IMG/VR virus record: IMGVR_UViG_3300032282_005553
Coordinates: 32,001 to 96,000 of that record
Direction: 5' to 3' (one strand)
From: a virus
DNA: 64,000 nucleotides
This document shows, one piece after another, positions 7,630 to 42,010 of this stretch. Below the pieces are notes generated by a model that saw only the letters and a list, made by a program, of their open reading frames with translations, was not told the origin of the DNA and searched no databases. Each line of letters begins with the position of its first letter. Position 1 is the first letter of the stretch. The position numbers were made by a program, and so were the translations under genes.

Positions 7630-7640
7630 GGAACAATATC

Positions 7641-8789: not shown

Positions 8790-8800
8790 TAGGAATAAAA

Positions 8801-9133: not shown

Positions 9134-9135
9134 TT

Positions 9136-12422: not shown

Positions 12423-12467
12423 TAGTGTATTACTGTATATCACAAGACAACTATCTTAGGAGATAAA

Positions 12468-18845: not shown

Positions 18846-18873
18846 TTCAAAAACACAATCAGTGGAGATTACC

Positions 18874-21139: not shown

Positions 21140-21445
21140 ATGTATTATGACCCAGAAAGACTAAGATTCTATGTAGAAAAAAGAATACAAACCACCATGA
21201 TAGGCGCACTAGCTAGAATAGAAAATACATTTGGACACCTTTGGGGACAAGATAAAGAAGGTGAACTTACTCGCGAAGAAGAAGAGTTTGCTGACGCATG
21301 GGATTTTTTGAGAAACGATATATTGAATTATGGAAACAAACAAATAAGACAAGTAAAGGAAGATTTTTATAAGTATGGTGGACTTTTCAAAAATACGTAT
21401 AATTATACTTTTAAAGTAAGAAAGGATGATAGTAATGAAAATTGA
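21140..21445 (+). CDS. Hypothetical protein (101 aa)
   Basis: AAGGAAGG RBS; tight operon packing. Confidence 0.7.
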   Translation: MYYDPERLRFYVEKRIQTTMIGALARIENTFGHLWGQDKEGELTREEEEFADAWDFLRNDILNYGNKQIRQVKEDFYKYGGLFKNTYNYTFKVRKDDSNEN

Positions 21446-22411: not shown

Positions 22412-25400
22412 ATGGCTAAAGGATTTAATTTAACAGCAGAAATTAATCTAAGAGGACCAGCGAACATTCGTACGGTCGTTGCCGATATACGTCGTCAATT
22501 AGGTACTGTTTCAGCGAACGTTAATGTAAAAGTGAATCCTGCATCATCCAGAAATATAGCTGGATTAAATCAAGCATTAACTAATCTTAATAATACTCTT
22601 TCTCAGACGAATGTATTGGCAACCCAAGTTACGGCATCGCTAAATGCTTTGGCAACCGCTGGCGGAACAGCATCTACATCTCTTGGAGGACTCCCAAGAT
22701 CGATGGGCTCGGCAACAGCATCTCTTAATAGATTTAATGCTAGTGCAGCGAATACAGGAAATGCTCTTAGAGTTTCTCGAACAGAATTCGAGGAATTCGG
22801 ACGTCAAGCTGCTCTAGCAGTAAGAAGATTTGCTGCATTTTCTACTGTTACTAGCGTTGTATTCAAGGTAACGAACGCTATTAGTTCAGCATATACAGAG
22901 TTCGTTGCTTTTGATAAAGAATTAGTCAGAGTGGCACAGGTTACTGATTCATCACTATCTAGTTTATCTGGATTAGAAAGAAGCATCACAAATTTATCAA
23001 CATCGCTTGGTGTATCGTCACAAGACTTAATTAAAGTTAGTAGCACATTAGCTCAGGCAGGATTGTCTGCCAAAGACACAGAAAAATCATTGAAAGCTTT
23101 AGCATTAAGTGCTTTGGCTCCATCATTCGAGGGACTAAATGATACGGTCGAAGGTAGTATTGCTCTTATGAGACAGTTCGGTATACAGGCTGGCGATCTT
23201 GAAAAATCTTTGGGTTCTATCAACGCAGTATCTGCTAGGTTTGCTGTAGAGGCCGGAGATATTATTGCTGCCATTCAGCGCACTGGTGGTGTGTTTGCTG
23301 CTGCGTCTAGAGGAGTTAGCGAAGGTAAAGATGCCTTAAATGAATTTATCGCAGTATTTACTAGTATTCGTGCCACAACTCGTGAAAGTGCAGAGACAAT
23401 TGCTACAGGCTTAAGAACAATTTTTACAAGAATACAAAGATCTAGCACAATAGAAGCACTAAAAGAATACGGAGTCAATCTTACAGATATTGAAGGTAAG
23501 TTTGTTGGAGCATATAAAGCTGTAGAACTACTTAGTGGTGGACTTGGTAAACTAGACCCAAGAGATCTTAAATTCAGTAAGATCATAGAAGAACTTGGTG
23601 GATTTAGACAGATTGGTAAAGTTATCCCTTTGATTCAAGAGTTCGCAACCGCACAACAAGCGTTGGCTGTCGCACAAAAGGGTCAGGGATCTTTAAGTAC
23701 AGACGCCGCTACTGCACAACAGGCATTAGCTATCAAGATATCAAAGGTAAGAGAAGAATTTATCGCATTAATTAGGTCTGTATCAAAAAGTGATAGTTTT
23801 CAAAATTTTATCAATTTGAGTCTTGATTTAGCAAGTTCACTCATAAAGCTTTCTGATTCTGCAAAAGTTTTACTACCAGCATTAACTGCCATTGCAGCAA
23901 TTAGGGGTGCTAGTTTTATAACGCAATTTTCTAGAGGATTTGCTGGTGGTATAAGAACTCAACGCAATAACAATGGTGGTCCGATAAGAGGTTTCGCTAC
24001 AGGGGGCTTGGTACCTGGGCGCGGTGATACAGATACATATCCCGCTATGTTAACTCCTGGTGAGTTTGTTATACGTAAAAAAGCGGTAGATAAAATAGGT
24101 GTTACTAATTTACATAGAATTAACAGGGCATCTGGAGGATATATTCCAAAAGTAAAATCAGAAAGCTCTGAACCAAAACAATATTTTGATGGAGCAAGAT
24201 CACAAAGAACAGTACAAAAAACTAAAAATAGTGGAAGATATATCGCCCCCAAAGTTAGCATACCAGAAAGAGCACACATAGGTGGTGATCTTTATATAGA
24301 TCAATCCTTTTTAGTCAGATATCTAGAGAGATACTCTGCATCAAAACTAAAAAGATCTATAGGAGAATTTTCTGGTACAAAACCAGGCATGGCAGTAGGC
24401 GTTATTGGTGGAATGAGTAAAACAGAATATGATAAATTTATCAAAGAAAAATTAAATCTGTCAGTTAAAAAAAGAATACGTCTGAATTTCCCAAGAACAT
24501 TTAATCAGGCATTAAGAGCAACAGACCCAGGTCTAGTATTAAAGAACGATCTTGTAGACATCGTATCATCTGCTCCAGACTTGACCGATCCTTTAGGCGG
24601 CTTGTCTTCATCAGAAATCAATAAAATTAAACAAAATAGTATACGAAAAATAAGATCATTAAAAGCATTACCAGCATCATCTTATCGTAAAAACTTAGGC
24701 TGGAGATCTGACACACCAGACAGTCTCAAAAATGCCCCAGCATTTGATAGCGATTATCAGCTCAATCCTTTGGCTCAAATAATAGAATCTAGTGTCAATC
24801 AGACAACCAAACAGAAACTACAAAACAATATAGATTTATTATTCAGATCATCAAAAAAAGACGCAAAATATATCTCTAGCAAAACAGGCCAAGAAAGAAC
24901 AAGAACTCAATCAAGAGAATCTGCTAGATTATCTACTATAATGAAAAAATATAGCAATGATCCTAGAAATGTGCAAAGAAGAGAAGAGTCATATTATGAC
25001 AGAGGATTAGAAAACGCAATATCTTCTTTACCAGAAAAAAGAAGTCGTAAAAAATCACAAACTACTTCCAACTACCCAAAAGATCGTATACCATTTTATA
25101 TGTTAAATGCTGGTGGTTCAGTACAAAGATTTGCTGATGGTGGAGTTACCACTAGAAATGTGGGTTATATAGACAGTGATGCGCTAAATGATCCAGCAAA
25201 TAAAGCTTTAGTAGATGAGCAAATAGAAAAACTTAAAAAACAAGGAATCAAAATAGAAGGTGGATACAGAGGCTATAAACAATATCTATCGGACCTTGCT
25301 GCAAAAGCTCGTCAAGAAAAACAAATTGGAAGATTAACATCTATCGTAGGGTTACCCGGAGCCGGTAAGAGCACCATGATGATGGGTAGTTCTCAGGCTG

Positions 25401-28400
25401 ACAATGCCACAATGAGAAAAACTACCAGATTCCCCATATTGACACCTGAAGATATAACAAGATCATCCTCAGTAATAGACGTTACAGCAAGTGTAAATCC
25501 TAAAAAAATAGATGCTTCTCTACAAGCATCAGATAGAATAGTATCATTGTCTTCATCAACTAAAGAAGAACAACAAGAATTACGCAGAAGACGAAAATTA
25601 AGAAATAGACAAATAGAGTCCGGAACCTCAACAACCGGTTTTGGTCGCAGAGCAGGAACAACGGATTCCGCCCCAGTAGATAGTGGATATATTGAAGCTA
25701 TTTTACAATCAGAAATTAAAGACCCCAAGAAGATAAGAACACTTGGAGTGACACCAAAAGGATTTAGAACAAAAAGAGGAGATGATATACCAGAAATATT
25801 AAAGGAAAAAATTAATCTATATTATGGTAATTTTGGACCAACAACAGCAGGCCACGTTGCTGCTCAACAACAAGGAATGCAAGAATCCGCTAAAAGAGGT
25901 ATTTCAAAATCAATTGTGGCTGTTGGGATAGATACTCCAGTTAAATCTGGAGATGAGCACTCTACAAGATCAGCATTATTGAGCCAAAAAGAAAGAATTG
26001 CTTTAGCTAAAAAAGCATTCCCAGAGTCGTCTATAACCGCAGCGACAAAAGAAACCTTTGGTTTCGGATTACCATCTCTCTATGAAATAGAAAAGAGTGG
26101 AACAGACAGAAGAAGATTTGTTAAGCCATTGGGTGGTAGCACAGCCACAGTAGGAGACGAAAAAGGATCAAGTTCTTTACAAAAATATTTAGATGCTGGA
26201 TTCGATCCTAAAGATATATTAACTCTTGAAAGATTGGGTGGTATTAGTGGTACTAAAGTTAGAGAGGCTCTATTAAAGGGTGACACCAAAACCCTAAAAA
26301 AATTAACAAGTCCAGCAGTATTCGATATTCTTAGTAGAAATTCTGAAGTTTTTCAAAGAAGATCTAGTATTTTACCAAAAATTATGGAGCGTATAGGAAC
26401 TAGAGCAACTTCATCACTAGGAGCAATAGAGGCCGAACTTGCAAAATATCCAGGTAGACTAACTCCCAAGATCAAAGCTGAACACCCAGAATACGAAGAG
26501 ATAGTAGATAATCTTAGAAAACAAAGAGATAAAATAAAAGCAAAAGCTGAATCCCGTTCGGGATCGACAATGAGAAGATTATCTAGAATGTTTCCATCAG
26601 CATACGGTATTGATATTGGAGATACTCAAAAGTTTATGGCTGGAGAAGCAGTAAAAGCTAGGGTCGGCAGGAAAAAAGCAGAAAGACTACATGATACTGA
26701 CATTGGCGAGGCTAGAACAAAGACCGCTAGCGAAATTATTTCAGAATTGACCATCTCCAGTGCTCAACAAGTATTAACGGAAGCTGGTGGAGCTAGAGTT
26801 AATGCGAATACATTACTTAGAAAATCAAAACTTAATCCAGATGAGCTTAGACTAAAAGACAGTATTTTATCTGCATATGTCACTAAAGTTAATGCTAAAG
26901 CTAAAGAGGCAAGAGAAAGAGACTTAGGAGCAACAACATCCGCACAACAAGCTAAGACTTTATTTGGTGTCATAGGAATGTTTGGAAATGGTTTTCCGGC
27001 TGAAAATATAACTTTGGAAGATGGACTTAAAAAACCCACTACTGTTAGAGTATTTGGCGCTGTTTTAGATAAGAATAAAGCTGAAAAAGATGCTAGATTA
27101 GAACAAAGAAAGAATAGATTAAGCGCTATAAATACTAAAAGAACTATAAAAGGTAAATCGAGACTGTCAGACTCAAGAGCACAAGATATTGAAAATGCTC
27201 CCATGGCATCTGCTCTCAGCAAAGAGTATTTACAAGAAGATTTATCTGGAATTACAAAAAGGACGGGTATCACACCACAAATGACTCCTGCTCTTAAAAA
27301 ATCTTTAGCTGATAGTCAAGGATCTAAATTTCAAAATGATGTTACTGCAACCTTAATTAAAACTCCAGAAGGTAAGGAAATATCCGATTCTATGATGAGA
27401 GATAATCAGCAAAGAAGCATAGACTTTCCATATGGGATTGGTATGTCTATGGCCAAGAATTGGTTTAATAATGCTTTATTAGCGAATATACCAGTTGATG
27501 CCAAAAGAACACTAACAGGACCAAGAGGAAAATTACTTAGTAATATCACTAATTATTTAAAAACTAAAGGATTTGCTATAGGTGGACACATACCAGAAAA
27601 TAATGAAGATTCGGTTCCAGCACTATTGACACCCGGAGAATTTGTGATCAATAAAAAAGCAGCCCAAAGAATAGGTGCTGCTAAATTACATCAGTTAAAC
27701 AGAGCAGATAGAATAAAGGGTTTCAATAAGGGTGGTGCTGTTGGACCACAAAGATTTTTCCTAGGAGGAGGAGCATCTGCCAGACCAGGAGATAGTGCTA
27801 ATATAAATAATTTAATGGTTCCTGCTAGTTCTATCAATCAATTGAGACTAATAGTAGATGCTCTTGAAGAACTAGGAGTTAGTGCTTCAAAATCAGCAGA
27901 TCTACTTAAAAAAGGAGGAAGAGCTAGTATACAAGCAGCACATGCCGCATATGAAGCTGATATAGTAAGACTACGTATTGCTGGTGCTCCCATACAAACA
28001 GTAATTAATGCTGAAACACAATTAGCAAATATGAGGCAGCAAGCAACGAGACAAGTTGCAGCACAAAGACAACTTTCTGGAGTTGGTGGATCAAAACTAC
28101 AAAGAATAGATACGGCAGCCCAAAACAATATTCAGAGAATGGTCCAGAGAGCTCAAAATGCTGGAGTAAATCTTGATGAAAATCAAATGCGTCGCATTGA
28201 AGATTTAGGATATAGAAGAGCTGCTACGAGAGCGAGAATATCTCCAACACAAATGGCAGGATTAAATGGTAATGATTTACGTCAATTTATTAACAGTGCC
28301 ATGGGTGATCCTAAAACTTTTCAGCAAATGAATAAAACTTTTGAGACACAGAGAAAACAAGAAATATTAAGACAAATAAATATTGAAAGAGGAGTTACTA

Positions 28401-31400
28401 ACGATAAAAAAGAAATAGCAAATAGATCCAAAGAAGCCAGAATGCTCGCGAAGGAAGAATCTGATGCTCGTAGACAGATACTAAACCAAACTAGAGGATC
28501 GTCCGGTCCGGGCTCTGCTAGATCGCAAAGATTTAATCAGGCAATGTTTGGAGCTAGTTTTGTTTTACCAATGGTAGGTCAAATGATGGGTGGAGATCCA
28601 TCAAATGCAGGATCATCTGCTCAAGCTGGTCAGATCGCCGGTGCTCAAGGGGCCGTAAACATGGCTAGTACAGGAGCTATGGTGACGAGCATGGCCGCCA
28701 CAGGACCAATTGGAATAGCGCTAGGTGCTGCTGCTACGGCCGTTGCGACTTTTGGACAAGCCACTATGGATGCCCATAATGCAGTAATTGATTTTGAGAA
28801 ACAATTAGTTGCTAAAAAAGTAGAACATGCAATAGCTGATATCAATAAAATGTTTGAAAAATTAGCTAAAGATCTTAGTAATGTAGATATTCAAAATTCT
28901 ATAACCAAAAAATTAAACGAAGCCACCTCAATCTTAATTGATAATATGGAGTTCCAAAGAAGAACTGCTAAAATTTATTGGACAAATATCATTGATATGA
29001 TGGCAAATAATAATAATGCATCTAATGAAAGAAGTAGGATATTAGAAAAACATGGTACAGGGGCGTATCTGAATTCTACAGCGTTTGGACAAAATCCGGT
29101 TGGAATGACGCTTAATGCAATAGCTTTTGGTATACCTGATGCTATATACAAAGCATTTAATGGCAAAAGCATGTTTGCTGGATCAGAAGAGAAAGCGAAT
29201 CAAAATAGATACGAATATACCAAAATGATGATACCTGACCAGGCTAGAGAATCAGCTAGAGGGTTCGCTGACCTTGCCGATACTGCTACAAGATTAATAG
29301 AAGAAAAAATTAGATCAGGAATGAATGTTGATGATATCATTAATAATCCAGACTTTGAAAAATATGGAAGAAATTTGGCATTGGCTAATTCTTCGGTACA
29401 AGAACAAATTTTGACTCTTAGAAATAGTATTCTTGTTGCTGATGATGAGAAAAAAGCTAGAGAAGAATCAATTATCAAAACATATGCTGAAGAGGAAGCA
29501 AGAAGAAGAGCTTCTATTGTAGCAAGAGAAATCGAGATAAGAGAAGCTAAAAAAAGTAGCGCTAAAATGTCCAGATCTCTAGAAAGAATGTTCCAAAATA
29601 TGGAGCAAGCAATAAATAGAACAAATTTCGGACTGCAACGAATGGCTGATGAGTTGGATCTTGTAACATCTTCATTAACTGGACAGGCCAAGGCCGGAGA
29701 GGGAGTACTAAAAAGCATCAATGTACTACAAAATCCAAGAGCATACTCCTCAAGAGACTTCTCTGAAGCAAGTAATCAAGCGGCATCATTTTTTGGCGAT
29801 AATTCTGGATTAATGAATGGATTATTAACTTTAGGTAATGATATCGAAACAACAATTATGGGTACTATTAGTAGGACCCTATCGGAAAATGAAGGAGACA
29901 ATCAAGAAAAAATTTCTGTTGCTATTGAAAGGGCTGTAAAAACTAAATTAGCTGATCTTGCTTTGCCAGAAGACGTTTCTGCTAAATTAGCTAGAGAAGT
30001 AAAAAGAGCTCTTGATCAATTAAGAAAAGAAGGTGATCAGAAGATAGATTTTAGTCAACTAGAAGAACGCTTACAAGATATCAGTAAAGTTTTTGATAGT
30101 GCAAAAAGAGCACAAGAAATAGCCATAAAAGCTCTGGAAAACTGGAATAGTGCTCTTAATGCCTATGCAGAGAGTATGAATAGAATTGTCGAACTACAGA
30201 TCTCTTATCAAGCTAGAGCTAGAAAATCTACCGAACTACAAACGAATGCACAACTAGAACTTGCTAAAGTGCTCGGTAGAGATGTTTCTGTATCAGATAT
30301 TAAAGAAAAAAGAGACTCACAAATTCGTCAACAGACCGGTGGTTTAACATCTCCAGATAGTATAGCAAAAAACTTTGCTAACCTAGAAGAAAAACGCAGA
30401 CAACAAGAAGCCGCTATTGATGTAGCAAGAAATCAAGGAGCAAGAGGAGCCGAAGATTTCCAAAAGATGCAAAATAATTTGGCTAAGACCAATGTTGCTT
30501 TAAGAGAAAATTATGATGCTCTTAAAAATCTTGCTGAAAATTCTGATGTCGCTGCTGCTGCTCTCAATAAAGTACAAGAAGCTCAACAAAAACAACAAGG
30601 AAAAGTTAGTTTTATAGAAAAACTTGTGACCAGTACTCCAGACGAATACAACGCATTAAACAGAGCTGTTATTAGATTACAACGAAATATGAATGGCCAA
30701 ATGAATTCAATCAATAACAGTGTTGGTGCTCAAAAAGCATATGCAGAAGCTTTGAATGAAGGAGCTAGTGCTGCAGAAGCCATGAGAGCAGCTCAAGCGG
30801 CATTTGCTAATGAAAGAAAAGATACACTATCAGCATTAAATGATTTGTTACCATTCCTTGGCAATGGACAACAAGCTAATCAAATAAGAGCAAATACATT
30901 ACAATCTATGCTAAAAGAGAGTGGACTCGGCGTCTCTCCTCTGATGCAACAAATTTTAGATTCTTTAAGGAACCCTGAGCTTGATCCAGAAACACAAAAA
31001 GCAATTCAACTATATGAAGATGCTAATCAATTACAAATAGCAGCAAATAATTCTTTAGTAAAAATAGAACAAGCATTAGCTGATGCCACAGCAGATAAAG
31101 CAGCAAAAGCTATAGCATCTGCTTTAGAAAAAACAATATTGACTTTTAAAACAGCAGAACAACAAGATATTAATAATGGAGTTGCTCAAGGTAGAGCATT
31201 TGGTGGTATTATCTATGCTTCAGAAGGAATGTTTACTCCCAGAGGTACAGATACTGTCCCCGCTATGTTAACGCCGGGAGAATTTGTAGTTAATAAAGCA
31301 GCAACAGCTAAAAATTTAGGATTATTACAAAATATTAATAATAATCATTATAGCACTGGTGGAAAAGTTAATTATTATGCAGCCGGGGGTTATGTTAGCA

Positions 31401-34400: not shown

Positions 34401-37400
34401 AGTTTGGTGGAGATTTGCCACACGAAGAGTGGTTTAATAAAAGAATAGAAGCAGGAAATTTTGCTACCGGCGGTATGGTTTATGCTCAAGATGGATCTCT
34501 TATAAACTTTACTCCACGCGGCACAGACACTGTTCCGGCAATGTTGACTCCTGGAGAATTCGTTGTCAATAGAGCAGCAACCGCCAAGAATCTACCTCTC
34601 TTAAAACAAATAAATGGCAATAGAGGCTATAGCAGAGGAGGGGTTGTTAATTACCTACAAGATGGTGGCCAAGCCGAAGGCGCACCAGAATTTGATCTTG
34701 CAACTACCACCGAATATAGACCAGAAAATAGTTTTGGAAATAGAAGTATTTCAACTTTATCTAGAATACAATATGAGTCTAGATATGGTGTTCCCGGAGT
34801 CAGAGATAATGTAAAAATGATCTCTGAAGAAATATATAAAACACTCAGAGACAGATCGGCACAGGAATCAACACTAAGACAAGCTGGTACTCCAATTTTT
34901 TATGATGATAATAGTACAAGATCTAAAAGACAACAAGCAAACAAATTAAAATTAAATAAAAAAGAATATACAGAATTGTCTATTGCTGAAACCGAAAGAA
35001 GAATACCGCTATTTCAAAGACAAACAGAAGAATATTATCCAAATGGAACAAACTTTGATCATAGTGTTTTTGATAGAAAGATGCTAGATTTCCAAGGTTT
35101 GCCAACTATTAACTATTTAAATGCAGATATTAGATCACATGGTCAAAAAATTGCAGCAATGAAAGATGCTGTTGGAGCCAAGGAAAATGGATTCCCTGAT
35201 TTATTAGCCAAATATTTATTAGGAATGAAAGATTACGAAAGCACCTGGGCTAGTGTTGGACTAAGCTTTGCTCTAGATCTACAGAATATAATGCCAACCC
35301 TTAGTGGAGGTGCTAGTCAGGCTCTTATAGGAAAAGGTTTATCGTGGTTAGGCAAAAATACAGGACTTAAAAAGGCTATAACAATAGCTATGCAGAAAGG
35401 TAAATCAGCATTAAGTTCACTAGATAAAATTGCATTTAGACAAGTTGAAAAAGGAATAGATGAAATTCCTATTAAAGATTTGGGATTAGCAGATTTACCA
35501 GACTCTAAAACAGCACAATCGCTGTCTCCTAGTCCCACAAAGATACCCAGAGGAGGAGAAAGAATATCATTTGATGACAAAGCACTACAAATGTTTTTCC
35601 GTTCTGTTCCGACTAATGTTAAGGATTTTAAAAAGTCTTTCTGGCAAACAGTTTCTTCAAAAGGTATTTTTCAACAAGTTTCCGATTTTACCAGATTTAT
35701 TGGACTACCAGACAACGAAGCATTGCTTGGTGTTCCAGCTGCTATAGATATCAAACATCTTGAACCTGGCATCAGAGGTAGATTTGATTCTAATCTCGCC
35801 AGATTGAGTACTCAAGGGGTATCCGGAGCAGCATCAACAGGAAGAGGACTCGCTTCTGTACAACCATATGCAGAAGTAAATACTTTGTATCATGAGTTAG
35901 CTCATCAATTTTTAAATGGAATCAGAACACATCATCCTAAAGCATGGGAATTCTATCAGGAACGTGTTCAAGATATGTTTACTGATCACAGAAGTTGGAA
36001 TAATCTTGCAAATGCTTTTGATGCTATTGGAGGAAGCTATAGAAGTGAAGATGTTTTATATGGTGCTAGTTATAAGCTAAGAGATTTACAAAAAATATTA
36101 GATCAACATCCTGGAGACAAAGATCTAATAAGATTAGTTAGTAGAGCTACAAAACATAAAGATGCCGGTAGAGCTAGTTGGGCGAGCATAGATGAAGAAG
36201 TAACAGATGTATTGAGATCCAAGAGAGGATCACAGTACCTTGAGACTATGCAAAATAATGGATTAGAAGAATTCTTAACAGTAGTTGTTCAGAACGCTGG
36301 ACGACTTGACAAACAGATGAGACAAGCACTGGACACAACATTAGAAGCCATATTTCATAACTCTGGCATAGCAAGAGACAGAGGATTATTTGATAATTTT
36401 TATGCTGAACTTGATAAACCAACAATTTTCCAAAGAATAAAAACCGCAATATCTGCTAGGCTTAGTAGGCCAAAAGCAGCAACAAGGGTTCCAAAACCAC
36501 CAAGACCTCAAAAGCCAAAAACTAAAAATACTCCGGATAACGATATGATCGCTGGTCGTATTGGTCCAAAAAAATCTAAAACAAAATCAAAAAATAAAAA
36601 GGAGAAAAGAAGATGGCCGTGGATTATTCCTATTCCTATTTTTGGTTTGGGTGCGGCCGGGGTCTACGAGGCTACTAAGCAACCTTCTGCCCCTCTTTTA
36701 GAAGAAGGAGAGGGATTGGGCGGAGAATTTATTGGCGGAGGTGAAGGCGGCGGAATGATGCCAGAGATTACCTCTCCTAATCCAGCAAGAGAAGGCGCTA
36801 TGGGTGCTGCCGCGACACAACCAGGAGCAAACGGTGGACAAAATGGTGTTGGTCCTTCATTTCCGAATGAAGCCAGAAATAATGCTCAAGCAGCAGCACA
36901 AGAAGAAAAAGCTAGAAAATCCGGATGGAAAAAATCTAAAAAAGAAAAACCTTCGTCGTCACCTTTACCCGAATCTTCTGATTTTCCTGAAGCTATTCCT
37001 TTTTCTCCTTTAGAAGATACCAATGAAGAAACATCCTCTAATTTATTGAATAGACCGGGCGAGCCACTTAGAAGAGCTAAAGGAGGCATAGTTTATGCAT
37101 CAAATGGCTCATTGATTAATTTTCAACCAAGAGGCACAGATACTGTTCCGGCGATGCTAACGCCAGGAGAGTTTGTAGTTAATAAAGCAGCAACACAAAA
37201 GAATTTGCCAGCATTACAAGAAATTAATAGCAATACATATATGGCAGATGGTGGACTGTTAGGAAGACCAAAGGTCGTACAAGGGGTTACTCTAAATCCA
37301 AGAGATAAACTAACGCCAAGATTTAATAATATAGACTCTGCTATTAGTACTAGTAATAAAAACTTAAATACAGTATTACAGAATGAAAACTCACAAAATA

Positions 37401-40400
37401 ATAAATTAAATGAATTGCTTATAGATAGTAAAAATAACAAAAAGGTATTATCTCAAATTAATACCAAAACAGACTTTACTAATTCAAAAGTTAATGATAT
37501 AGCTAGAAACACCGGATCTTTAACAGATACGATCAATGCTTTTTGGCAAATGCTTTCCGGTCCCGGTCCTAGCGTGGAGATGCCTCCTAGGGTAATAAAT
37601 CGCAGCACGGGCGGCATAATATATGCTAGCGAAGGAACTCTTGTTCCTTATTCTCCAAAGGGAACAGATACAGTTCCTGCTATGTTAACTCCGGGAGAGT
37701 TTGTAGTAAATAGAGCTGCTACTAGCAAGAACTTGAGCCTATTAAAGAATATTAATAATGGATATAGTCAAGGTGGGATAATATATGCTGATGATGGAAT
37801 AAAAGTTCCAGGAACAGGAGACTTTACAACAACAGTAAGCGGAGCATCAACAAATAATATACAATCAAGTCAAACATTATCTGACAAAGAAATTGAATTA
37901 GAAAGACTCAGACAGTCCTTTGAACAAGCAAGAGCTAGATTCGAAAGAGAAAAAGAACAAAGAGATAGAATACAATATTCTCTCGCTTTAGTTAATGAAG
38001 GATTATCTAAATACAAAAATCAGAGAGGTGCTGCCTTAGATAGATTATTAGGCATAAGTAATCCATCGAACATATTAAATGATGAAAAAAGCTCGCTACA
38101 AAGAAAATTAACTTTTAATTTACTTGGTGTTGATAATGACGTCGGAGCATGGATTGCTAGAGCAGAACTTTTAAGTAAACAGCTTGCTGAAACTGGTGTT
38201 GGAATAACAGGAGCAACAGTTGCCGGATCGGCCGGTGCCGTAGCAGGCGGCGGAGTTGCTAGTCCAGTGACATCAGCAACATTGGGAACAGCGGGATATA
38301 TAGTTTCTGTAAGTGCATATAAAGATTTTCTAGGCGAACAATATAAGGAAAGAATGGATCTTTTACGACAAGCATTTCCTGGTCAATCTACGGTGACAGA
38401 TTTGGCCCCTGCTGTTATGGGAGTTTCTTCATTAGCCAAAAATGCTTATACTAACCTTGGGGCTATAGGTATAAAACAAGCCGGAAAAGAGATATCTTCG
38501 GAAGTTGCTGGAGACGCTATTGGTACAATATCAGCAGCTTTTGCAACTGGCGAACCCATCAGCTATAGTGCTCAAGATGCTATTTTGGCTTCATTAGGCA
38601 TTAAGCTTAGCGGACCGAGCAGATCAATTAGTACCACTAGATCCAGAGCATCAGAACAGCCGACAGCATCTTCTACAAAATTGTCACAACAGCCACCTCC
38701 GCTACCGAGTACTTTAGGATCCATTTTTGCTTCATATAAAAAAGCAATATCTAATAAAATAGATATGTTATTTAATAGATCTCCCGTAGCAGTACATGAT
38801 CAAGCACTTAAATATTTCAAAGAAAGAGGAGCAGTAAATTTTGATGAGATTAGAGAACACTTACGAGGAGAAGTTAAATCATCCAAAGGAGTTGCCGTTA
38901 GTGTCGGAATGATAGCTAAAATGCTCGGAGTAGAACCTAAATATCTTATAGCAGAAGATATGAGAGCGGTTAGAAAAACTATCGAAGGTGCCAGTGGATA
39001 TTATAGTGATTTTACTAGTCGTGATGCTATTAAAGTTGATGAGAACACCGGACTTGTTGCTGGAACTTTTAGTAGGGAACCGGGCGATATTGATCCGGGC
39101 GCAATATTAGCATTAAATAATGATAATAAAGTAAATAATAGTATTGTTTGGCATGAGATCATGCACTCCATGCTTACTAGAATGGGTAAAAATGGATATG
39201 GAAGATTTATCAAATTAATGCAAGATAATCAAAAATCTGTTTTGGGATATATAACTGAACGACCAGATCTATTTCGTAGTTATGGTATAACAGATATTGC
39301 AGATGGAGCACATTATGTAGGAAGAGCTCTTCAAGATATGCCACAATGGTCCTTTTTAAAGAGCGCAGCAGAGATGGCAAGTGATGATGATATTAAATAT
39401 GCCATAGCTCAAAAACAAGCTTACTTACAAAAATTAAGTACTGAAGATCCCGGTAGATTGTCTTCTCCTGATATATTTAATGATATAGTTCCAGGAACAA
39501 TGTTGAGAGTTTCACATATTACAGGCATGGAATCTGCAGAAAATCACTATGGTGGTATCAAAAATGCAATTAAATATGTTGAAGCAGTAATCAAAAGCGG
39601 TCGAGGTGTCGATCCAGCATTCCTTGCACATGCAGGGGATCATAATGCTAAAATCATGGATATATTGAGTGATCTTAATATTATTGAAGAAAGATCTGCT
39701 TTCGATTGGACGAAAGAATATGGGTATGAAGAATTTGCGACTCAACTTTTACAAAATTTTGATAGATTGGATCCAAAAGGACTGTCTTTCTTAAGTGATA
39801 TTATCTCTTCAGTATACGATGATAATAGAATCGCTGCTCTTAGGGATCCAAAAATTGTTTATGCTCAACTACAAAAAGTATTCAAGGGTTCTGGTTCAAA
39901 TATAGAGAAAGAACAATATAATGGATTAGAAACTCCTGCTTTATCTAGTGGAGGAATAATAAAATCTTTATACGCCAGTACTGGTAAATTGATTTCATAC
40001 AAGCCAATAGGTACAGATACTGTGCCAGCAATGTTGACTCCTGGCGAGTTTGTTGTTAATGCACAGGCTACAGCTAAAAATCTACCATTATTAAAATCTA
40101 TCAATGAAGGTAATTACAAGAGCAGTGGAGGAGTAGTATATCTTGACAATGGCGGAGTCGCCGACGAAAAAGATCTTGCTGCCGCTAATGGAAGAAATGG
40201 TTTCGAAAGAAAAATGGCAGTTGGAGCAAAACAGAGAAATAAACTCCAAAAAATTGCTGCAAAACCTGATGATACTGGTACTTTATGGGTATTTCTCAAT
40301 CCATCTCCTATGGTGATAGATAAAGAATTAGTTGCTTCAGGATTTACTGCTCTGAGCTTGTTGAAAAAAGATCTTACCTATACTGATGTTAATGAACCAT

Positions 40401-42010
40401 TAACAACACTTGATCTGGGAGCAACAATATATAGTAAAAGAGCTAGCTCACAGACAAAGGCATTGAAACATGTTAATGATAGATTAAATATCAAAGATAA
40501 AAAAGATCCCAAGAGAATTAAAAAAGCTATTACAGCAGGTGAGGCTTTGGATAGAGCTAGGAGAGAATACCAGAAACAAACAATAGGTAATAAAGTTATC
40601 TCTGAACTAGCTTATCAAATGAATATTATGCCCAAAGAATTTGAAATTTTAAATGATCAAGCCTATGAAAACCCTGACGATGTTAATAAGCATATACAAT
40701 CTATAGCGGAAGAAATTATCTTATGGAAGGATAATGATGCTAGAAAAAATAGAAATGGAATGAAAGTAGCACAAGAGTATGGTAAATATATTAATAGAAA
40801 TAGCGATATCAATGTTAAAAATAAAAACGCTTTGCAAGCCATAGCTTTGATGATGAGTGATAAAGATTTAGTTGTTCATGATATACGAGCACTTAATAAA
40901 AAATATCCTGTTTTTAAAGACACGGATCCGATAGAAATATTAAAAACTCAAACAAATGCTCAAAAAGACGAAAGAGAAAAACTAGAAGAAATTATTGATG
41001 GTCTTAAGAACTATGCTGCTGATGCTTATGTCAGCGATATTATTAATAGTCCTGAATTCCAATCTGGTGCTGGTATTTTATCTAGCGACGCATTTGCGGG
41101 CGTCACAGTTTCTAATTTTAGCGGAGGCAATTTTTCAGATCATGTTGTTACCACAAAACCAATAGTAAAAGCTGCTCAATTTAATAAAGGTGGTGTGGTT
41201 TACGCTGATGATGGTATGCTCATACCTTATCAGCCAAAGGGAACAGACACCGTCCCCGCAATGCTAACTCCAGGCGAGTTTGTAATAAATAGAGCTGCTA
41301 CACAACGTAATTTACCACTACTTAAAGCTATAAATAGTAACACATACGCTAATGGCGGAGTAGTATATGCTACTAAAGGACTAAATCCTCGTCAACAAGA
41401 ATATTATGATGCTAGACAAGCAAGAAAAGAAGAATACGAAAGAATGCAAGCAGAAAGACGAAGAGCATACGAGAACAAAAATAACGTAAATAGATTTAGA
41501 GATTCTCAAGGAAATCTTTTGAATCAGCAAACACGAAGAAATGTATTAATGGGCAGCAATCAGCAACAAAATATTGGTCAATCACGAAATAATACAAATA
41601 ATGTTGATCAGAACATGGGCCAATTTAGTAATAATTTACAAACTATTAATCAACTACTACAAACTTTTGGTAACAGCATCAACACATTTAATACTGTTAT
41701 ATCGCAGATAAATAGACAAATTACCGGTTCGGCTGAGCCAAGGGGTGTATCTAATAATAAAGGCACAGCGCCAAATCTGGACGGCATGGGCGGATTTGTT
41801 GCTAAATTTGATGAATTTATTAACCAACTAAAGGGTCTAAACTTGCCACCAGTAATTAATTTACAAGTTGCGCCAATTACATTGAATATAACCGGAGGAG
41901 AAGCACTTGCAAAAGCACTAGAAGGACCAATGAGTAATCAAATCAAGTCAGAAATAGCGGCAGCATTCCAAAGACTAAACGACGCTACAGAAGGCGCCAT
42001 TCAAGTTTAA
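22412..42010 (+). CDS. Giant tape measure protein (6532 aa), polyvalent, with eight repeated modules and enzymatic cargo domains
   Basis: AAGGA RBS; N-terminal TP901-family TMP core (FDKELVRVAQV...LAQAGL...ESAETIATGLRTIFTRI...GGFRQIGKVIPLI); canonical position after tube and chaperone genes; internal GLPGAGKS, TAGH/ISGTKVR, HELAH and HEIMH motifs. Confidence 0.9.
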   Translation: MAKGFNLTAEINLRGPANIRTVVADIRRQLGTVSANVNVKVNPASSRNIAGLNQALTNLNNTLSQTNVLATQVTASLNALATAGGTASTSLGGLPRSMGSATASLNRFNASAANTGNALRVSRTEFEEFGRQAALAVRRFAAFSTVTSVVFKVTNAISSAYTEFVAFDKELVRVAQVTDSSLSSLSGLERSITNLSTSLGVSSQDLIKVSSTLAQAGLSAKDTEKSLKALALSALAPSFEGLNDTVEGSIALMRQFGIQAGDLEKSLGSINAVSARFAVEAGDIIAAIQRTGGVFAAASRGVSEGKDALNEFIAVFTSIRATTRESAETIATGLRTIFTRIQRSSTIEALKEYGVNLTDIEGKFVGAYKAVELLSGGLGKLDPRDLKFSKIIEELGGFRQIGKVIPLIQEFATAQQALAVAQKGQGSLSTDAATAQQALAIKISKVREEFIALIRSVSKSDSFQNFINLSLDLASSLIKLSDSAKVLLPALTAIAAIRGASFITQFSRGFAGGIRTQRNNNGGPIRGFATGGLVPGRGDTDTYPAMLTPGEFVIRKKAVDKIGVTNLHRINRASGGYIPKVKSESSEPKQYFDGARSQRTVQKTKNSGRYIAPKVSIPERAHIGGDLYIDQSFLVRYLERYSASKLKRSIGEFSGTKPGMAVGVIGGMSKTEYDKFIKEKLNLSVKKRIRLNFPRTFNQALRATDPGLVLKNDLVDIVSSAPDLTDPLGGLSSSEINKIKQNSIRKIRSLKALPASSYRKNLGWRSDTPDSLKNAPAFDSDYQLNPLAQIIESSVNQTTKQKLQNNIDLLFRSSKKDAKYISSKTGQERTRTQSRESARLSTIMKKYSNDPRNVQRREESYYDRGLENAISSLPEKRSRKKSQTTSNYPKDRIPFYMLNAGGSVQRFADGGVTTRNVGYIDSDALNDPANKALVDEQIEKLKKQGIKIEGGYRGYKQYLSDLAAKARQEKQIGRLTSIVGLPGAGKSTMMMGSSQADNATMRKTTRFPILTPEDITRSSSVIDVTASVNPKKIDASLQASDRIVSLSSSTKEEQQELRRRRKLRNRQIESGTSTTGFGRRAGTTDSAPVDSGYIEAILQSEIKDPKKIRTLGVTPKGFRTKRGDDIPEILKEKINLYYGNFGPTTAGHVAAQQQGMQESAKRGISKSIVAVGIDTPVKSGDEHSTRSALLSQKERIALAKKAFPESSITAATKETFGFGLPSLYEIEKSGTDRRRFVKPLGGSTATVGDEKGSSSLQKYLDAGFDPKDILTLERLGGISGTKVREALLKGDTKTLKKLTSPAVFDILSRNSEVFQRRSSILPKIMERIGTRATSSLGAIEAELAKYPGRLTPKIKAEHPEYEEIVDNLRKQRDKIKAKAESRSGSTMRRLSRMFPSAYGIDIGDTQKFMAGEAVKARVGRKKAERLHDTDIGEARTKTASEIISELTISSAQQVLTEAGGARVNANTLLRKSKLNPDELRLKDSILSAYVTKVNAKAKEARERDLGATTSAQQAKTLFGVIGMFGNGFPAENITLEDGLKKPTTVRVFGAVLDKNKAEKDARLEQRKNRLSAINTKRTIKGKSRLSDSRAQDIENAPMASALSKEYLQEDLSGITKRTGITPQMTPALKKSLADSQGSKFQNDVTATLIKTPEGKEISDSMMRDNQQRSIDFPYGIGMSMAKNWFNNALLANIPVDAKRTLTGPRGKLLSNITNYLKTKGFAIGGHIPENNEDSVPALLTPGEFVINKKAAQRIGAAKLHQLNRADRIKGFNKGGAVGPQRFFLGGGASARPGDSANINNLMVPASSINQLRLIVDALEELGVSASKSADLLKKGGRASIQAAHAAYEADIVRLRIAGAPIQTVINAETQLANMRQQATRQVAAQRQLSGVGGSKLQRIDTAAQNNIQRMVQRAQNAGVNLDENQMRRIEDLGYRRAATRARISPTQMAGLNGNDLRQFINSAMGDPKTFQQMNKTFETQRKQEILRQINIERGVTNDKKEIANRSKEARMLAKEESDARRQILNQTRGSSGPGSARSQRFNQAMFGASFVLPMVGQMMGGDPSNAGSSAQAGQIAGAQGAVNMASTGAMVTSMAATGPIGIALGAAATAVATFGQATMDAHNAVIDFEKQLVAKKVEHAIADINKMFEKLAKDLSNVDIQNSITKKLNEATSILIDNMEFQRRTAKIYWTNIIDMMANNNNASNERSRILEKHGTGAYLNSTAFGQNPVGMTLNAIAFGIPDAIYKAFNGKSMFAGSEEKANQNRYEYTKMMIPDQARESARGFADLADTATRLIEEKIRSGMNVDDIINNPDFEKYGRNLALANSSVQEQILTLRNSILVADDEKKAREESIIKTYAEEEARRRASIVAREIEIREAKKSSAKMSRSLERMFQNMEQAINRTNFGLQRMADELDLVTSSLTGQAKAGEGVLKSINVLQNPRAYSSRDFSEASNQAASFFGDNSGLMNGLLTLGNDIETTIMGTISRTLSENEGDNQEKISVAIERAVKTKLADLALPEDVSAKLAREVKRALDQLRKEGDQKIDFSQLEERLQDISKVFDSAKRAQEIAIKALENWNSALNAYAESMNRIVELQISYQARARKSTELQTNAQLELAKVLGRDVSVSDIKEKRDSQIRQQTGGLTSPDSIAKNFANLEEKRRQQEAAIDVARNQGARGAEDFQKMQNNLAKTNVALRENYDALKNLAENSDVAAAALNKVQEAQQKQQGKVSFIEKLVTSTPDEYNALNRAVIRLQRNMNGQMNSINNSVGAQKAYAEALNEGASAAEAMRAAQAAFANERKDTLSALNDLLPFLGNGQQANQIRANTLQSMLKESGLGVSPLMQQILDSLRNPELDPETQKAIQLYEDANQLQIAANNSLVKIEQALADATADKAAKAIASALEKTILTFKTAEQQDINNGVAQGRAFGGIIYASEGMFTPRGTDTVPAMLTPGEFVVNKAATAKNLGLLQNINNNHYSTGGKVNYYAAGGYVSSIQKENKRTEENFKETQDKFLDLDDPGLREVLSGSEGSKIYQIPGRFIKVKEDALAQTPDRNAYNAGAMPRWDLSKIFDAHQDGNIVPGYSMGMQMKRTSTFLYGNIDWPLIYPIPGVTNTEPVEIGNGSFIGGLTEDKRISLATKPYVVSDEKKYLEQLQRLKITPEFIKKKFAWISNAAHPVRQAIDGDILDYPTDVTPQRNEPRGIVPYQAIRSSMLYSTDAGTELNAQNKIYARIYHNPEKKMNRAVGAGATNMPTFETGGPFEPTHDGYFNMEARTFDIDKKKVIPSADAQKIGKYNQDLYQILVKTYKALVPGAGQPRLSDLPLSDSGGKIGVFDSFQKQLANLYNGITPYENFIGEALDILDIDESAKAKNFTVISAEAATQQMVQDYIEKQVKNKGGKQPFSGGNPISIGIAGAPPGLDWVTEDLFDIKELATGNTKEFPVLINILPSEISEEFEKRAAEATKGSSPIKTSLFNHDGELSLDLAGGKKAKFPYFSTYTKYTGPLWDTATNTYSDKNNIKDFFLANPLDGNTPANIFKGLDISNNRLFDKTKPIDFDDRGNVSLSYDQAKLTELIDLYRVDKDKREADKIDAASMALKAASIRFKLNKDVGPLGALIKADAKVGDNDIFSGFTDQADKSMSIGDFLIEAAQKYAEQTTEEAKTATGEVADSKFNKEGFADQKKPFLDTLKGLTLGSLRIFGRRPLPGFPRAWFYALGGGRAYSLLKNNRMTLPIGKNIATYLTGMLAMNSGPGAQASTLASMSTNLRAFNYFEDLRTLIQGAFLTYQQLSQSDTSSIVQLLKNSRDAFGNLDLSTDAVEDIFRSLGATQSFNAAGSQALGGDYQRNLANQLAGSKIRVVKQSGKIEDVDAANIPYKNYTDLMALALNPYNEYTSKDIRSGIFDKLTQDISTATNQYGGPMFSQKTRAFLLNNLSTLKDWYAGNGNWLGQDYLFDKVANPDSKDRGDKFKQNLAIGNNLWSEANIAHRNLGAAVKFGGDLPHEEWFNKRIEAGNFATGGMVYAQDGSLINFTPRGTDTVPAMLTPGEFVVNRAATAKNLPLLKQINGNRGYSRGGVVNYLQDGGQAEGAPEFDLATTTEYRPENSFGNRSISTLSRIQYESRYGVPGVRDNVKMISEEIYKTLRDRSAQESTLRQAGTPIFYDDNSTRSKRQQANKLKLNKKEYTELSIAETERRIPLFQRQTEEYYPNGTNFDHSVFDRKMLDFQGLPTINYLNADIRSHGQKIAAMKDAVGAKENGFPDLLAKYLLGMKDYESTWASVGLSFALDLQNIMPTLSGGASQALIGKGLSWLGKNTGLKKAITIAMQKGKSALSSLDKIAFRQVEKGIDEIPIKDLGLADLPDSKTAQSLSPSPTKIPRGGERISFDDKALQMFFRSVPTNVKDFKKSFWQTVSSKGIFQQVSDFTRFIGLPDNEALLGVPAAIDIKHLEPGIRGRFDSNLARLSTQGVSGAASTGRGLASVQPYAEVNTLYHELAHQFLNGIRTHHPKAWEFYQERVQDMFTDHRSWNNLANAFDAIGGSYRSEDVLYGASYKLRDLQKILDQHPGDKDLIRLVSRATKHKDAGRASWASIDEEVTDVLRSKRGSQYLETMQNNGLEEFLTVVVQNAGRLDKQMRQALDTTLEAIFHNSGIARDRGLFDNFYAELDKPTIFQRIKTAISARLSRPKAATRVPKPPRPQKPKTKNTPDNDMIAGRIGPKKSKTKSKNKKEKRRWPWIIPIPIFGLGAAGVYEATKQPSAPLLEEGEGLGGEFIGGGEGGGMMPEITSPNPAREGAMGAAATQPGANGGQNGVGPSFPNEARNNAQAAAQEEKARKSGWKKSKKEKPSSSPLPESSDFPEAIPFSPLEDTNEETSSNLLNRPGEPLRRAKGGIVYASNGSLINFQPRGTDTVPAMLTPGEFVVNKAATQKNLPALQEINSNTYMADGGLLGRPKVVQGVTLNPRDKLTPRFNNIDSAISTSNKNLNTVLQNENSQNNKLNELLIDSKNNKKVLSQINTKTDFTNSKVNDIARNTGSLTDTINAFWQMLSGPGPSVEMPPRVINRSTGGIIYASEGTLVPYSPKGTDTVPAMLTPGEFVVNRAATSKNLSLLKNINNGYSQGGIIYADDGIKVPGTGDFTTTVSGASTNNIQSSQTLSDKEIELERLRQSFEQARARFEREKEQRDRIQYSLALVNEGLSKYKNQRGAALDRLLGISNPSNILNDEKSSLQRKLTFNLLGVDNDVGAWIARAELLSKQLAETGVGITGATVAGSAGAVAGGGVASPVTSATLGTAGYIVSVSAYKDFLGEQYKERMDLLRQAFPGQSTVTDLAPAVMGVSSLAKNAYTNLGAIGIKQAGKEISSEVAGDAIGTISAAFATGEPISYSAQDAILASLGIKLSGPSRSISTTRSRASEQPTASSTKLSQQPPPLPSTLGSIFASYKKAISNKIDMLFNRSPVAVHDQALKYFKERGAVNFDEIREHLRGEVKSSKGVAVSVGMIAKMLGVEPKYLIAEDMRAVRKTIEGASGYYSDFTSRDAIKVDENTGLVAGTFSREPGDIDPGAILALNNDNKVNNSIVWHEIMHSMLTRMGKNGYGRFIKLMQDNQKSVLGYITERPDLFRSYGITDIADGAHYVGRALQDMPQWSFLKSAAEMASDDDIKYAIAQKQAYLQKLSTEDPGRLSSPDIFNDIVPGTMLRVSHITGMESAENHYGGIKNAIKYVEAVIKSGRGVDPAFLAHAGDHNAKIMDILSDLNIIEERSAFDWTKEYGYEEFATQLLQNFDRLDPKGLSFLSDIISSVYDDNRIAALRDPKIVYAQLQKVFKGSGSNIEKEQYNGLETPALSSGGIIKSLYASTGKLISYKPIGTDTVPAMLTPGEFVVNAQATAKNLPLLKSINEGNYKSSGGVVYLDNGGVADEKDLAAANGRNGFERKMAVGAKQRNKLQKIAAKPDDTGTLWVFLNPSPMVIDKELVASGFTALSLLKKDLTYTDVNEPLTTLDLGATIYSKRASSQTKALKHVNDRLNIKDKKDPKRIKKAITAGEALDRARREYQKQTIGNKVISELAYQMNIMPKEFEILNDQAYENPDDVNKHIQSIAEEIILWKDNDARKNRNGMKVAQEYGKYINRNSDINVKNKNALQAIALMMSDKDLVVHDIRALNKKYPVFKDTDPIEILKTQTNAQKDEREKLEEIIDGLKNYAADAYVSDIINSPEFQSGAGILSSDAFAGVTVSNFSGGNFSDHVVTTKPIVKAAQFNKGGVVYADDGMLIPYQPKGTDTVPAMLTPGEFVINRAATQRNLPLLKAINSNTYANGGVVYATKGLNPRQQEYYDARQARKEEYERMQAERRRAYENKNNVNRFRDSQGNLLNQQTRRNVLMGSNQQQNIGQSRNNTNNVDQNMGQFSNNLQTINQLLQTFGNSINTFNTVISQINRQITGSAEPRGVSNNKGTAPNLDGMGGFVAKFDEFINQLKGLNLPPVINLQVAPITLNITGGEALAKALEGPMSNQIKSEIAAAFQRLNDATEGAIQV
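23993..41380 (+). repeat. Eight dispersed copies of a xxxGG...D(T/S)(V/Y)PA(M/L)LTPGEFV...xxxGG module: 23993-24139, 27572-27769, 31193-31390, 34460-34669, 37073-37255, 37601-37798, 39941-40156, 41180-41380
   Basis: Counted directly in the translation; GTDTVPAMLTPGEFV is invariant in copies 3-8 while codons differ at synonymous sites. Confidence 0.95.

Follow-up and report, generated by a model that had tools for sequence, protein, structure and literature searches.

Tape measure proteins (TMPs) set the length of phage tails, and some of them carry enzymes, as in T5, mycobacteriophages and P23-45; the TMPs of lambda and T5 are cut near the C-terminus by a mechanism that is not known. Here we describe a virus locus which raises the question of what a short protein element is doing when it recurs, nearly unchanged, along a giant TMP. 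The window, meaning the whole stretch of 64,000 nucleotides that was analysed, comprises positions 32,001 to 96,000 of IMG/VR virus record IMGVR_UViG_3300032282_005553, which is 136,889 bp long and was judged 92% complete. According to the list of open reading frames (ORFs) and the translation, 22412..42010 (+) is a single ORF with 6,532 codons open, and its product carries eight copies of one module. Sequence comparisons identify this module as a homolog of a segment at the cut region of lambda gpH, and place it at the boundaries between exchangeable cassettes in this protein and its relatives.

A giant tape measure protein with eight copies of one module

The N-terminal part of the ORF product matched two models of the TP901-type tape measure core above their curated cut-offs: TIGR01760 at amino acids 154-447 (E=5.5e-26; 91.4 bits against a cut-off of 28.8) and PF10145 at amino acids 191-395 (E=2.1e-23; 83.7 bits against a cut-off of 33.2). 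This core lies at 22871..23752 (+), and the N-terminus also matched several tape-measure PHROGs. Based on these family-core matches, we identify the product as a TMP of the TP901 type. The pattern GG...DTVPAMLTPGEFV...L..N...GG occurs eight times within the ORF, with core positions determined by regular expression at amino acids 544, 1736, 2950, 4042, 4913, 5089, 5872 and 6282; the copies are found between an FATGG motif at 23993-24007 and a YANGG motif at 41345-41359. Copies 3-8 have the identical core GTDTVPAMLTPGEFV(V/I)N, from which copy 1 (DTDTYPAMLTPGEFVIR) and copy 2 (NEDSVPALLTPGEFVIN) differ at few places. When a profile of the eight copies was run against the whole record, it gave eight matches, all in the TMP ORF (E 1.8e-40 to 1.0e-20). 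The original prediction had described six identical and two nearly identical cores, and all eight copies were recovered in this form.

The copies are much less alike as DNA than as protein. At the DNA level the modules were 61-75% alike over 131-160 nucleotides; the 45 nucleotides that encode each of the six identical 15-amino-acid cores averaged 81% identity (range 76-87%), with a mean of 8.1 of the 15 third codon positions differing. A similarity of 61-75% argues that the copies are neither recent duplicates nor gene-converted, and makes assembly joins unlikely; no long exact DNA repeats of the kind causing mis-assembly were found among them. Identical cores in spite of these third-position differences indicate that the copies are old and, as judged from the codons, maintained by selection on the protein, which agrees with what had been proposed from their synonymous differences.

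Anatomy of the module

For the anatomy of the module we aligned 135 non-redundant instances, taken from the window and from 76 related IMG/VR loci. The upstream half of the profile reads [R/K/F]-[A/S/N]-x-G-G-x-[V/I]-Y-..-G-..-P-x-G-T-D-T-V-P-A-M-L-T-P-G-E-F-V-[V/I]-N-[K/R], and this is followed by x-A-..-L-..-L-x-x-I-N-...-[Y/F]-x-x-G-G-x-V-x-Y-x-x-x-G-G. Profile positions A48, L50, G53, E54 and V56 were unchanged in every instance, and eight more residues, including D44, V46, P47, T51, P52, L69 and N73, were conserved in more than 90%. The two upstream glycines were conserved in 114 and 104 of the 135 instances and the two downstream glycines in 124 and 120, and each of the di-glycine motifs that had been listed as bracketing the copies was present. 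Judged by this alignment, the module consists of a near-invariant and apparently extended peptide, D-T-V-P-A-M-L-T-P-G-E-F-V, and then a short helix of amphipathic pattern (...L..L..IN); the two lie between flexible glycine-rich flanks, [F/R]-x-x-G-G upstream and [Y/F]-x-x-G-G downstream.

Structure prediction gave a similar picture. AlphaFold2 modeled module 4, with the alignment of 135 instances, at a mean predicted local distance difference test score (pLDDT) of 63.0, with only residues 50-70 confident and a helix at 59-73. Copy 1 together with the end of the TMP core, modeled with 25 copy-1-type sequences, had a mean pLDDT of 57.6 and showed one long helix in the core and a helix at 82-100 in the module; the remainder scored below 50. 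In these monomer predictions, which would not reveal a fold that forms only upon assembly, the module thus appears as a peptide and a helix between flexible linkers and not as a folded domain. Neither Pfam nor NCBIfam contains a model for it. A conserved double-module unit, formed by modules 5 and 6, was considered and dropped because it was covered by only two loci.

Homology to the cut region of lambda gpH

It had been suggested that copy 1 resembles an FATGG...YATGG segment of lambda gpH, and profile comparison bore this out. The 25 copy-1-type modules aligned with gpH 731-790 (hhalign E=5e-8, probability 94.8%) with 39% identity over 59 columns, the eight copies aligned with gpH 707-787 (E=1.2e-5), and the 135 instances also matched gpH (E=1.1e-5). 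The aligned lambda segment is FATGG...GEFVFTKEATSRIGVGNL...YATGG. Copy 1 in addition matched phrog_24 at profile positions 925-982 (E=5.7e-7) and phrog_4346 at positions 480-535 (E=2.2e-5); gpH itself maps to phrog_24 (gpH 1-852 on profile 205-1055), and the two match sites both correspond to gpH 721-786. The top sequence matches in the PDB were lambda gpH (E=0.02 and 0.063) and mycobacteriophage Douge gp16 (E=3.6e-12). We conclude from these profile alignments that copy 1 is homologous to gpH 731-790. The Pfam lambda model, PF09718, covers only gpH 627-701, and the module lies outside it.

This segment of gpH is situated where the protein is cut. In the available text of PMC12617516, gpH is described as being matured, once the tail is complete, to gpH* of ~78 kDa and a C-terminal piece, gpHC (Tsui and Hendrix 1983, as cited there). 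Three copies of gpHC remain bound to gpI in the tail tip, where only the gpI-bound residues 818-849 are resolved and residues ~690-817 are not. The same text states that the cut site and the catalyst are not known, in line with the earlier remark that no protease has been established for this step. In a mass table, 78-80 kDa of gpH is reached at residues 710-737, and a gpH* of ~78 kDa would put the cut near 710-735; the upstream GG of the lambda element is gpH 736-737, and a further GG pair lies at 781-782. These figures place the module in gpHC, at or just after the cut. The lambda segment had been assigned to the region removed during maturation. It does fall within the piece that is cut off, but this piece is retained in the tip, bound to gpI.

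In both proteins the TMP core ends in a hydrophobic region rich in glycine, and the element comes after this and before a C-terminal part. The single copy of gpH stands 63 amino acids from the end, whereas the present protein has eight copies over 5,800 amino acids with cassettes between them. Two alignments agree that the Asp and Asn which are invariant or nearly so in the modules are absent at the aligned lambda positions. Furthermore, gpH is known to be cut, whereas a cut in the present protein is a prediction. The homology does not extend to the end of the protein: the C-terminal 133 amino acids were tried as a homolog of the gpH C-terminus and dropped (BLASTP E=4.5).

The module is widespread and occurs in a fixed order

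The eight-copy profile was searched against 1.84 billion representative proteins and matched 14,662 protein clusters at E≤0.001, 4,277 at E≤1e-10 and 795 at E≤1e-30. Family statistics given here rest on the best 150 of the 14,662 matching clusters. These proteins are 935-7,872 amino acids long and had 3-12 matched stretches each, or 3-9 copies upon re-scanning. The first module started at a median residue of 520 (quartiles 511 and 575), and the last ended at a median of 146 amino acids from the C-terminus (quartiles 131 and 167). Gaps between modules had a median of 851 amino acids, with 10 of 566 gaps shorter than 25. In IMG/VR, at least 541 of at least 595 pattern matches were confirmed, and the 76 loci kept have stop-to-stop frames of up to 5,674 amino acids with up to 9 modules.

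Clustering of the helix part of 675 anchored instances, a procedure that missed 37, separated two big classes, and the lambda-like class was split further at one position to give three types. Type B resembles copy 1 (...GEFVIRK.AV..IG..NL), type C resembles copy 2 (...GEFVINKKAAQ.IG..L..LNKADK.QGFNKGG), and type A is like copies 3-8. The commonest orders were BCAA (31 proteins) and BCAAA (25), and the present protein has the order BCAAAAAA. The first module was of type B in 82 of the 150 proteins, with 26 more near-B, the second was of type C in 71, and the last was of type A in 136. The typing thus points to a fixed order in which B follows a TMP core of ~520 amino acids, C precedes a second backbone segment, and A modules fence the cassettes, the last of them ~150 amino acids from the C-terminus. 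It had been proposed that an element normally present in single copy was multiplied here; the eight copies agree with this, but the multiplication is not private to this phage and belongs to an old, family-wide architecture with subtypes B-C-A...A.

Modules also occur back to back. In five loci a B and a C module directly adjoin and no cassette separates them; B comes first in three of these loci and C in the other two (L034:104-703, L036:5315-5914, L039:5096-5695, L014:791-1390 and L055:6227-6826), and the cores of these modules have diverged further, as in DTVPMDLPEGSFVIRK. The idea that genes split naturally at modules received no support, the one split gene breaking elsewhere. This is L045:3-11143, from a relative of 194,787 bp, in which the TMP region is made up of three ORFs in three frames (ending 7058; 7015-9432; 9518-11143); sequencing frameshifts, decay or real splitting could be the cause.

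Named phages carry the module as well. A tblastn search with module 4 found 124 phage records, mostly phages of Gordonia, Brevundimonas, Nodularia and Streptomyces, and among the 40 shown all matches fell under TMP genes or in an unannotated record. With copy 1 the search found 132 phage records, T4-like cyanophages included. In the cyanomyophages, such as Synechococcus phages S-SM2 (SSM2_012) and S-SCSM1 (gene 213), the copy-1-type module is carried by a virion protein of 766-950 amino acids whose gene comes immediately behind gp26 and gp51, the baseplate hub genes. These carriers, one annotated as 'lysozyme' and the other as 'transmembrane protein', are probably the TMPs of these myophages.

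Modules fence exchangeable cassettes

We mapped which parts of the present protein are shared with 149 other giant TMPs by BLAST. The core (amino acids 1-600) was present in 114-128 of the 149 and the second backbone (amino acids 1800-2950) in 40-112, and the bins that contain modules were present in 124-149. The region between the first two modules (amino acids 600-1650) was found in 4-29 relatives, rising to 44 beside module 2, and the bins of the remaining cassettes in 3-47 (amino acids 3050-3950), 0-16 (4150-4850), 0-20 (5200-5800) and 4-15 (5950-6200). A module stands at every cassette boundary. Among 331 BLAST matches of at least 250 amino acids, 47.6% of the ends lay within 80 amino acids of a module core, a zone that makes up 19.7% of the protein length, and in only 11 cases did a long match span a module by more than 150 amino acids in both directions. 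This breaking of homology at the modules indicates that they are the places where relatives differ in content and that, by sequence comparison, they fence exchangeable cassettes.

The features that follow are all on the + strand of the window. Module 1 (23945..24184; type B, lambda-like, GFATGG...DTDTYPAMLTPGEFVIRKKAVDKIGVTNLHRINRASGG) is the homolog of lambda gpH 731-790. The cassette behind it (24185..27520; 1,112 amino acids) is common to ~24 of the 149 relatives; it contains a Walker A motif, GLPGAGKST (25349-25375), and a nucleotidyltransferase-like motif, GNFGPTTAGH (25826-25855), and had a weak match to Pfam HIGH_NTase1_ass (E=5.3e-5, below cut-off). Module 2 (27521..27760; type C, ...EDSVPALLTPGEFVINKKAAQRIGAAKLHQLNRADRIKGFNKGG) was assigned, as were modules 3, 4, 5, 7 and 8, from its motif and the subtype clustering. 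It is followed by the second conserved backbone segment (27761..31162; 1,134 amino acids), which has a hydrophobic Gly/Ala stretch and a long helical region and the C-terminal half of which is present in 94-112 relatives.

The remaining modules are all of type A. Between module 3 (31163..31402) and module 4 (34439..34678) lies a variable cassette of 1,012 amino acids (31403..34438), found in 3-47 relatives over most of its length and in up to 72 flanking module 4. The next variable cassette (34679..37051; 791 amino acids) carries HELAH at 35891-35905 and a weak SprT-like match (E=0.007, below cut-off), and its interior was found in 0-16 relatives, with more near the module flanks. Module 5 (37052..37291) and module 6 (37580..37819), the latter assigned by its motif, are separated by 96 amino acids. 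The 703-amino-acid variable cassette that follows (37820..39928) carries HEIMH at 39152-39166; its interior was found in 0-20 relatives, again with more near the module flanks. Module 7 (39929..40168) is followed by a variable cassette of 330 amino acids (40169..41158), found in 4-15 relatives over most of its length and in up to 92 beside module 8 (41159..41398), the last copy. The C-terminal tail beyond it (41399..42007; 203 amino acids) is, by its position alone, the part expected in the tail tip.

All Pfam and PDB matches to the cassettes were below cut-offs; PDB sequence searches with two cassettes gave one weak match to MJ0951 (E=0.0068) for one, and nothing below E=0.43 for the other. 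Besides its Walker A motif, the present protein has two HExxH motifs, and across the best 150 giant TMPs we counted 63 HExxH motifs, compared to 0.8 expected by composition and 3 in a reversed control. At least one HExxH was found in 49 of these proteins and none in 101.

Comparison with other tape measure and multi-enzyme proteins

The TMP of T5, pb2, is cut after R1127 into pb2* and pb2C (PMC10038345). In a likeness to the processing proposed here, this cut falls towards the C-terminal end, with a hydrophobic stretch before it and, after it, a piece that is retained in the tip. The sequence after the cut, AEGGMMYPG...GEHGTEVV, looks by eye like the GG-h-h-Y flank and GE-x-VV core of the module, and the InterPro match IPR000834 of the pb2 record concerns the GEHGTEVV stretch, just after the mapped cut. 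As a module homolog, pb2 was rejected: hmmsearch with filters off found nothing, and hhalign gave E=0.91, and E=0.44 at an unrelated place.

Thermus phage P23-45 provides an example of a giant TMP with a working enzyme. The available text of PMC10770324 describes gp96 as a 5,002-amino-acid TMP fused to a proven active virion RNA polymerase; this giant TMP, from a phage with an extremely long tail, also has a metallopeptidase and membrane segments. Unlike the present cassettes, its enzyme is N-terminal and not fenced, and packaging and processing are stated there as not known. With filters off, gp96 gave no module match up to E=10, and it lacks the GE[FYLM]V pattern.

Polyvalent proteins, giant chains with several enzymes, are believed to be delivered into the host together with the DNA; their commonest domain is the zincin metallopeptidase (~36%), which is predicted to process them (Iyer et al. 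2017, PMC5512222, in the part available). The HExxH motifs in 49 of the 150 giant TMPs are a point of likeness. Polyvalent proteins differ in that they travel in heads or via conjugation, and the available part of that paper describes no repeated junction element; the term 'tape measure' has 0 occurrences in it.

Among mycobacteriophages, Douge gp16 (PDB 8ZDO) is a TMP of 1,699 amino acids with two modules, at 953-1037 and 1411-1468 (E=3.6e-12). Cell-wall enzymes are known as insertions in actinophage TMPs, a further likeness; the mycobacteriophage TMPs differ in having one or two modules only. In TM4, deletion of a TMP-embedded motif, Mt3, reportedly shortens the tail (Piuri and Hatfull 2006). 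In Douge only residues 1658-1699 of the TMP are resolved (PMC13033339). The available part of a paper on Cluster O mycobacteriophages reports no TMP cleavage. In Brevundimonas phage Kikimora a single module lies at 2005-2062 of a protein of 2,340 amino acids. Nodularia phage vB_NpeS-2AV2 has modules at ~1011 and ~1080, in the middle of a TMP of 3,404 amino acids (locus 8983-19197), and its tail is listed as 795 nm (Table 1, PMC6293099). These figures correspond to 0.23 nm per residue, well above the 0.15 of an alpha-helix.

How the junctions may be read

The explanation that we place first, although tentatively, is that each junction is read by one common partner and cut in the glycine flank; the likelihood we give it takes in the chances that the module cuts itself or is cut by a Gly-Gly protease. 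All copies would be read by the same partner, most likely the activity by which lambda gpH is matured through a cut in the glycine-rich stretch next to its element. The tail tube would be built around the ruler first, and the ruler would then be cut at each junction to give TMP* and a train of separate pieces, which would be housed in the tail lumen and exit before the DNA. We take the maturation cut as the most likely activity because the homologous gpH segment stands at the cut region and a module stands at every cassette boundary. A single trans-acting reader is suggested by the identity of paralogous cores, by the form of a peptide plus helix, and by a conservation of the module core far above that of the TMP core and its neighbours, the median best-match identity among relatives being 55% for the TMP core and 29-43% for the upstream ORFs. 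Self-association on its own would not account for the identity between different copies, and the predicted short helix with unstructured flanks is as expected of a peptide bound by something else.

Several observations weigh against cutting by a common partner. No cleavage has been demonstrated for any module-bearing giant TMP, and even in lambda the cut site is unmapped, according to the available literature. At E≤1 the genome gave no match to Prok-JAB, NlpC/P60, C39 (PF03412) or M23, and Prok-JAB was found in 0 of 48 related virus records searched, of which 16 are at least 90% complete. The internal junctions would presumably lie inside a closed tube, beyond an outside protease. Ordinary protease sites are far shorter than the conserved stretch of ~35 amino acids and its flanks, the existence of subtypes B, C and A suggests position-specific roles, and modules also occur back to back without a cassette, 10 of 566 gaps being below 25 amino acids. 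T5 pb2, the only TMP with a mapped cut, has no significant similarity to the module, and P23-45 gp96 has a working enzyme in its 5,002 amino acids with no module at all. The HExxH domains had been put forward as possible cutters of the module. Their enrichment counts in favour of cutting, in that it recalls the polyvalent proteins with their predicted zincin processing, but the absence of HExxH from 101 of the 150 giant TMPs means that these domains are not the general protease.

The chief alternative, which we consider a serious possibility and place second, is that the junction is not cut and acts as a hinge or docking node in an intact chain. The module could bind a tail assembly chaperone or the tube lumen and restart tube growth past each cassette, or it could keep three or six chains aligned in register while the cassettes fold independently; in either case the whole chain of 6,532 amino acids would be the ruler of a tail of about a micrometre. 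Both AlphaFold2 models, with their helix and flexible flanks, would suit such a role, as would the positional subtypes, the back-to-back modules without cargo, and the absence of the searched protease families from the genome and of Prok-JAB from all 48 related records. The two-module phages are also in keeping with it: vB_NpeS-2AV2 combines a module-bearing giant TMP with a very long tail, and in Douge the TMP density runs through the whole tube (PMC13033339). What an uncut junction leaves unexplained is why the homologous lambda element sits exactly in the cut region. In addition, neighbours in the chaperone and tube positions are 29-43% identical while the core is near-invariant, unlike a co-evolving pair, and enzyme-like cassettes in one 700-kDa chain would have to work tethered.

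A self-cleaving module, in which the invariant Asp, Glu and Asn form an autoproteolytic centre triggered by assembly, we regard as unlikely. Capsid proteins that cut themselves at Asn after assembly provide a precedent. D44, E54 and N73 are invariant or nearly so in the 135 instances, and conservation of the kind seen in enzymes would account for the identical cores. The lambda cut follows tail completion with no catalyst known, in the available text of PMC12617516. However, lambda, the only member known to be cut, lacks both the Asp and the Asn where they should align, an argument against a self-cleaving centre in common, and neither of the two AlphaFold2 models (mean pLDDT 63.0 and 57.6) predicts a folded domain. 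Self-cleavage through the invariant Asp and Glu, one of the two mechanisms originally predicted, is weakened by both points.

The other predicted mechanism, cutting by a Gly-Gly-specific protease as in C39 leaders, the polyproteins of African swine fever virus or deubiquitinase-like JAB enzymes, is in our estimate highly improbable. The GG pairs are conserved on both flanks, and lambda gpK, which takes part in tail assembly but was not found in virions (PMC10721106), matches NlpC/P60 (E=3.4e-13) and, just under the cut-off and over a partial domain, Prok-JAB (E=6e-5). With gpK as a positive control, no C39, JAB, NlpC/P60 or M23 match was obtained in the genome, and JAB was absent from the 48 related records; a gpK-type JAB/NlpC-P60 protein was accordingly rejected as the cutter. 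The sites are moreover internal and not N-terminal leaders, which together with the missing PF03412 match tells against the comparison with C39, and the glycines may merely give flexibility. The notion that the modules are only recombination linkers, kept as shared sequence for cassette exchange with no protein role, accords with the breaks in homology at the modules but is scarcely credible given conservation at the protein level, largely randomised third positions and a DNA similarity of 61-75%, the opposite of what DNA-level recombination calls for.

Genes around the tape measure gene

The TMP gene is preceded by two overlapping small ORFs and followed by large ORFs, none with a Pfam or PHROG name. 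Directly 5' of it are 21140-21445 and 21426-22313 (+), of 101 and 295 amino acids, with a 20-nucleotide overlap and the second in the +1 frame relative to the first. The position directly upstream of the TMP gene is the usual one for a frameshift-made pair of tail assembly chaperones. Relatives of the two ORFs were found in 22 and 27 of the 76 related loci, respectively.

Five further very large ORFs lie around the gene on the + strand: 1-7629 (2,542 amino acids, open at the 5' end), 12468-16709 (1,413), 42025-46368 (1,447), 48056-52219 (1,387) and 53889-62021 (2,710). One of them, 12468-16709, had a single tail fiber PHROG match (E=7e-7); the other four had no PHROG match at E≤0.001, and the three downstream ORFs gave nothing above cut-off in Pfam. 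ORF 62024-62494 (+; 156 amino acids) had a weak DUF6171 match just under cut-off (E=2.3e-5) and also matched phrog_13558, to which no function is assigned.

Implications for tape measure proteins

A repeated, ordered junction module that fences TMP cassettes is not described in the searchable literature; there, 'tape measure' combined with 'GEFV' returned nothing, and nothing usable was found on TMP processing by mass spectrometry or on the gpGT-gpH chaperone. What is added here is a short element, absent from Pfam and NCBIfam and present in 14,662 protein clusters, which is sited in the lambda cut region and which, in a large class of giant TMPs, the longest with 7,872 amino acids, delimits the exchangeable cassettes. 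It provides a handle on the old question of which sequence directs the cut of gpH to gpH*, and this can be tested in lambda by ordinary mutagenesis.

If the modules are uncut, tails of about a micrometre on a 700-kDa ruler are to be expected, which would be notable in itself; with the whole chain of 6,532 amino acids as ruler, 0.15-0.23 nm per residue would give a length of about 1.0-1.5 micrometres. A broader proposal, which we consider possible though rather doubtful, is that the module is the determinant of TMP maturation across tailed phages, directing a cut in the glycine flank after tube assembly, either self-catalysed in the assembled oligomer or by a not yet recognised activity; its repetition would then turn the TMP into a tail-lumen polyprotein of enzymes that enter the host before the DNA. 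If this is true, the module would identify which sequence underlies the lambda gpH to gpH* cut. What the arrangement suggests is a natural plug-in design by which phage tails carry proteins.

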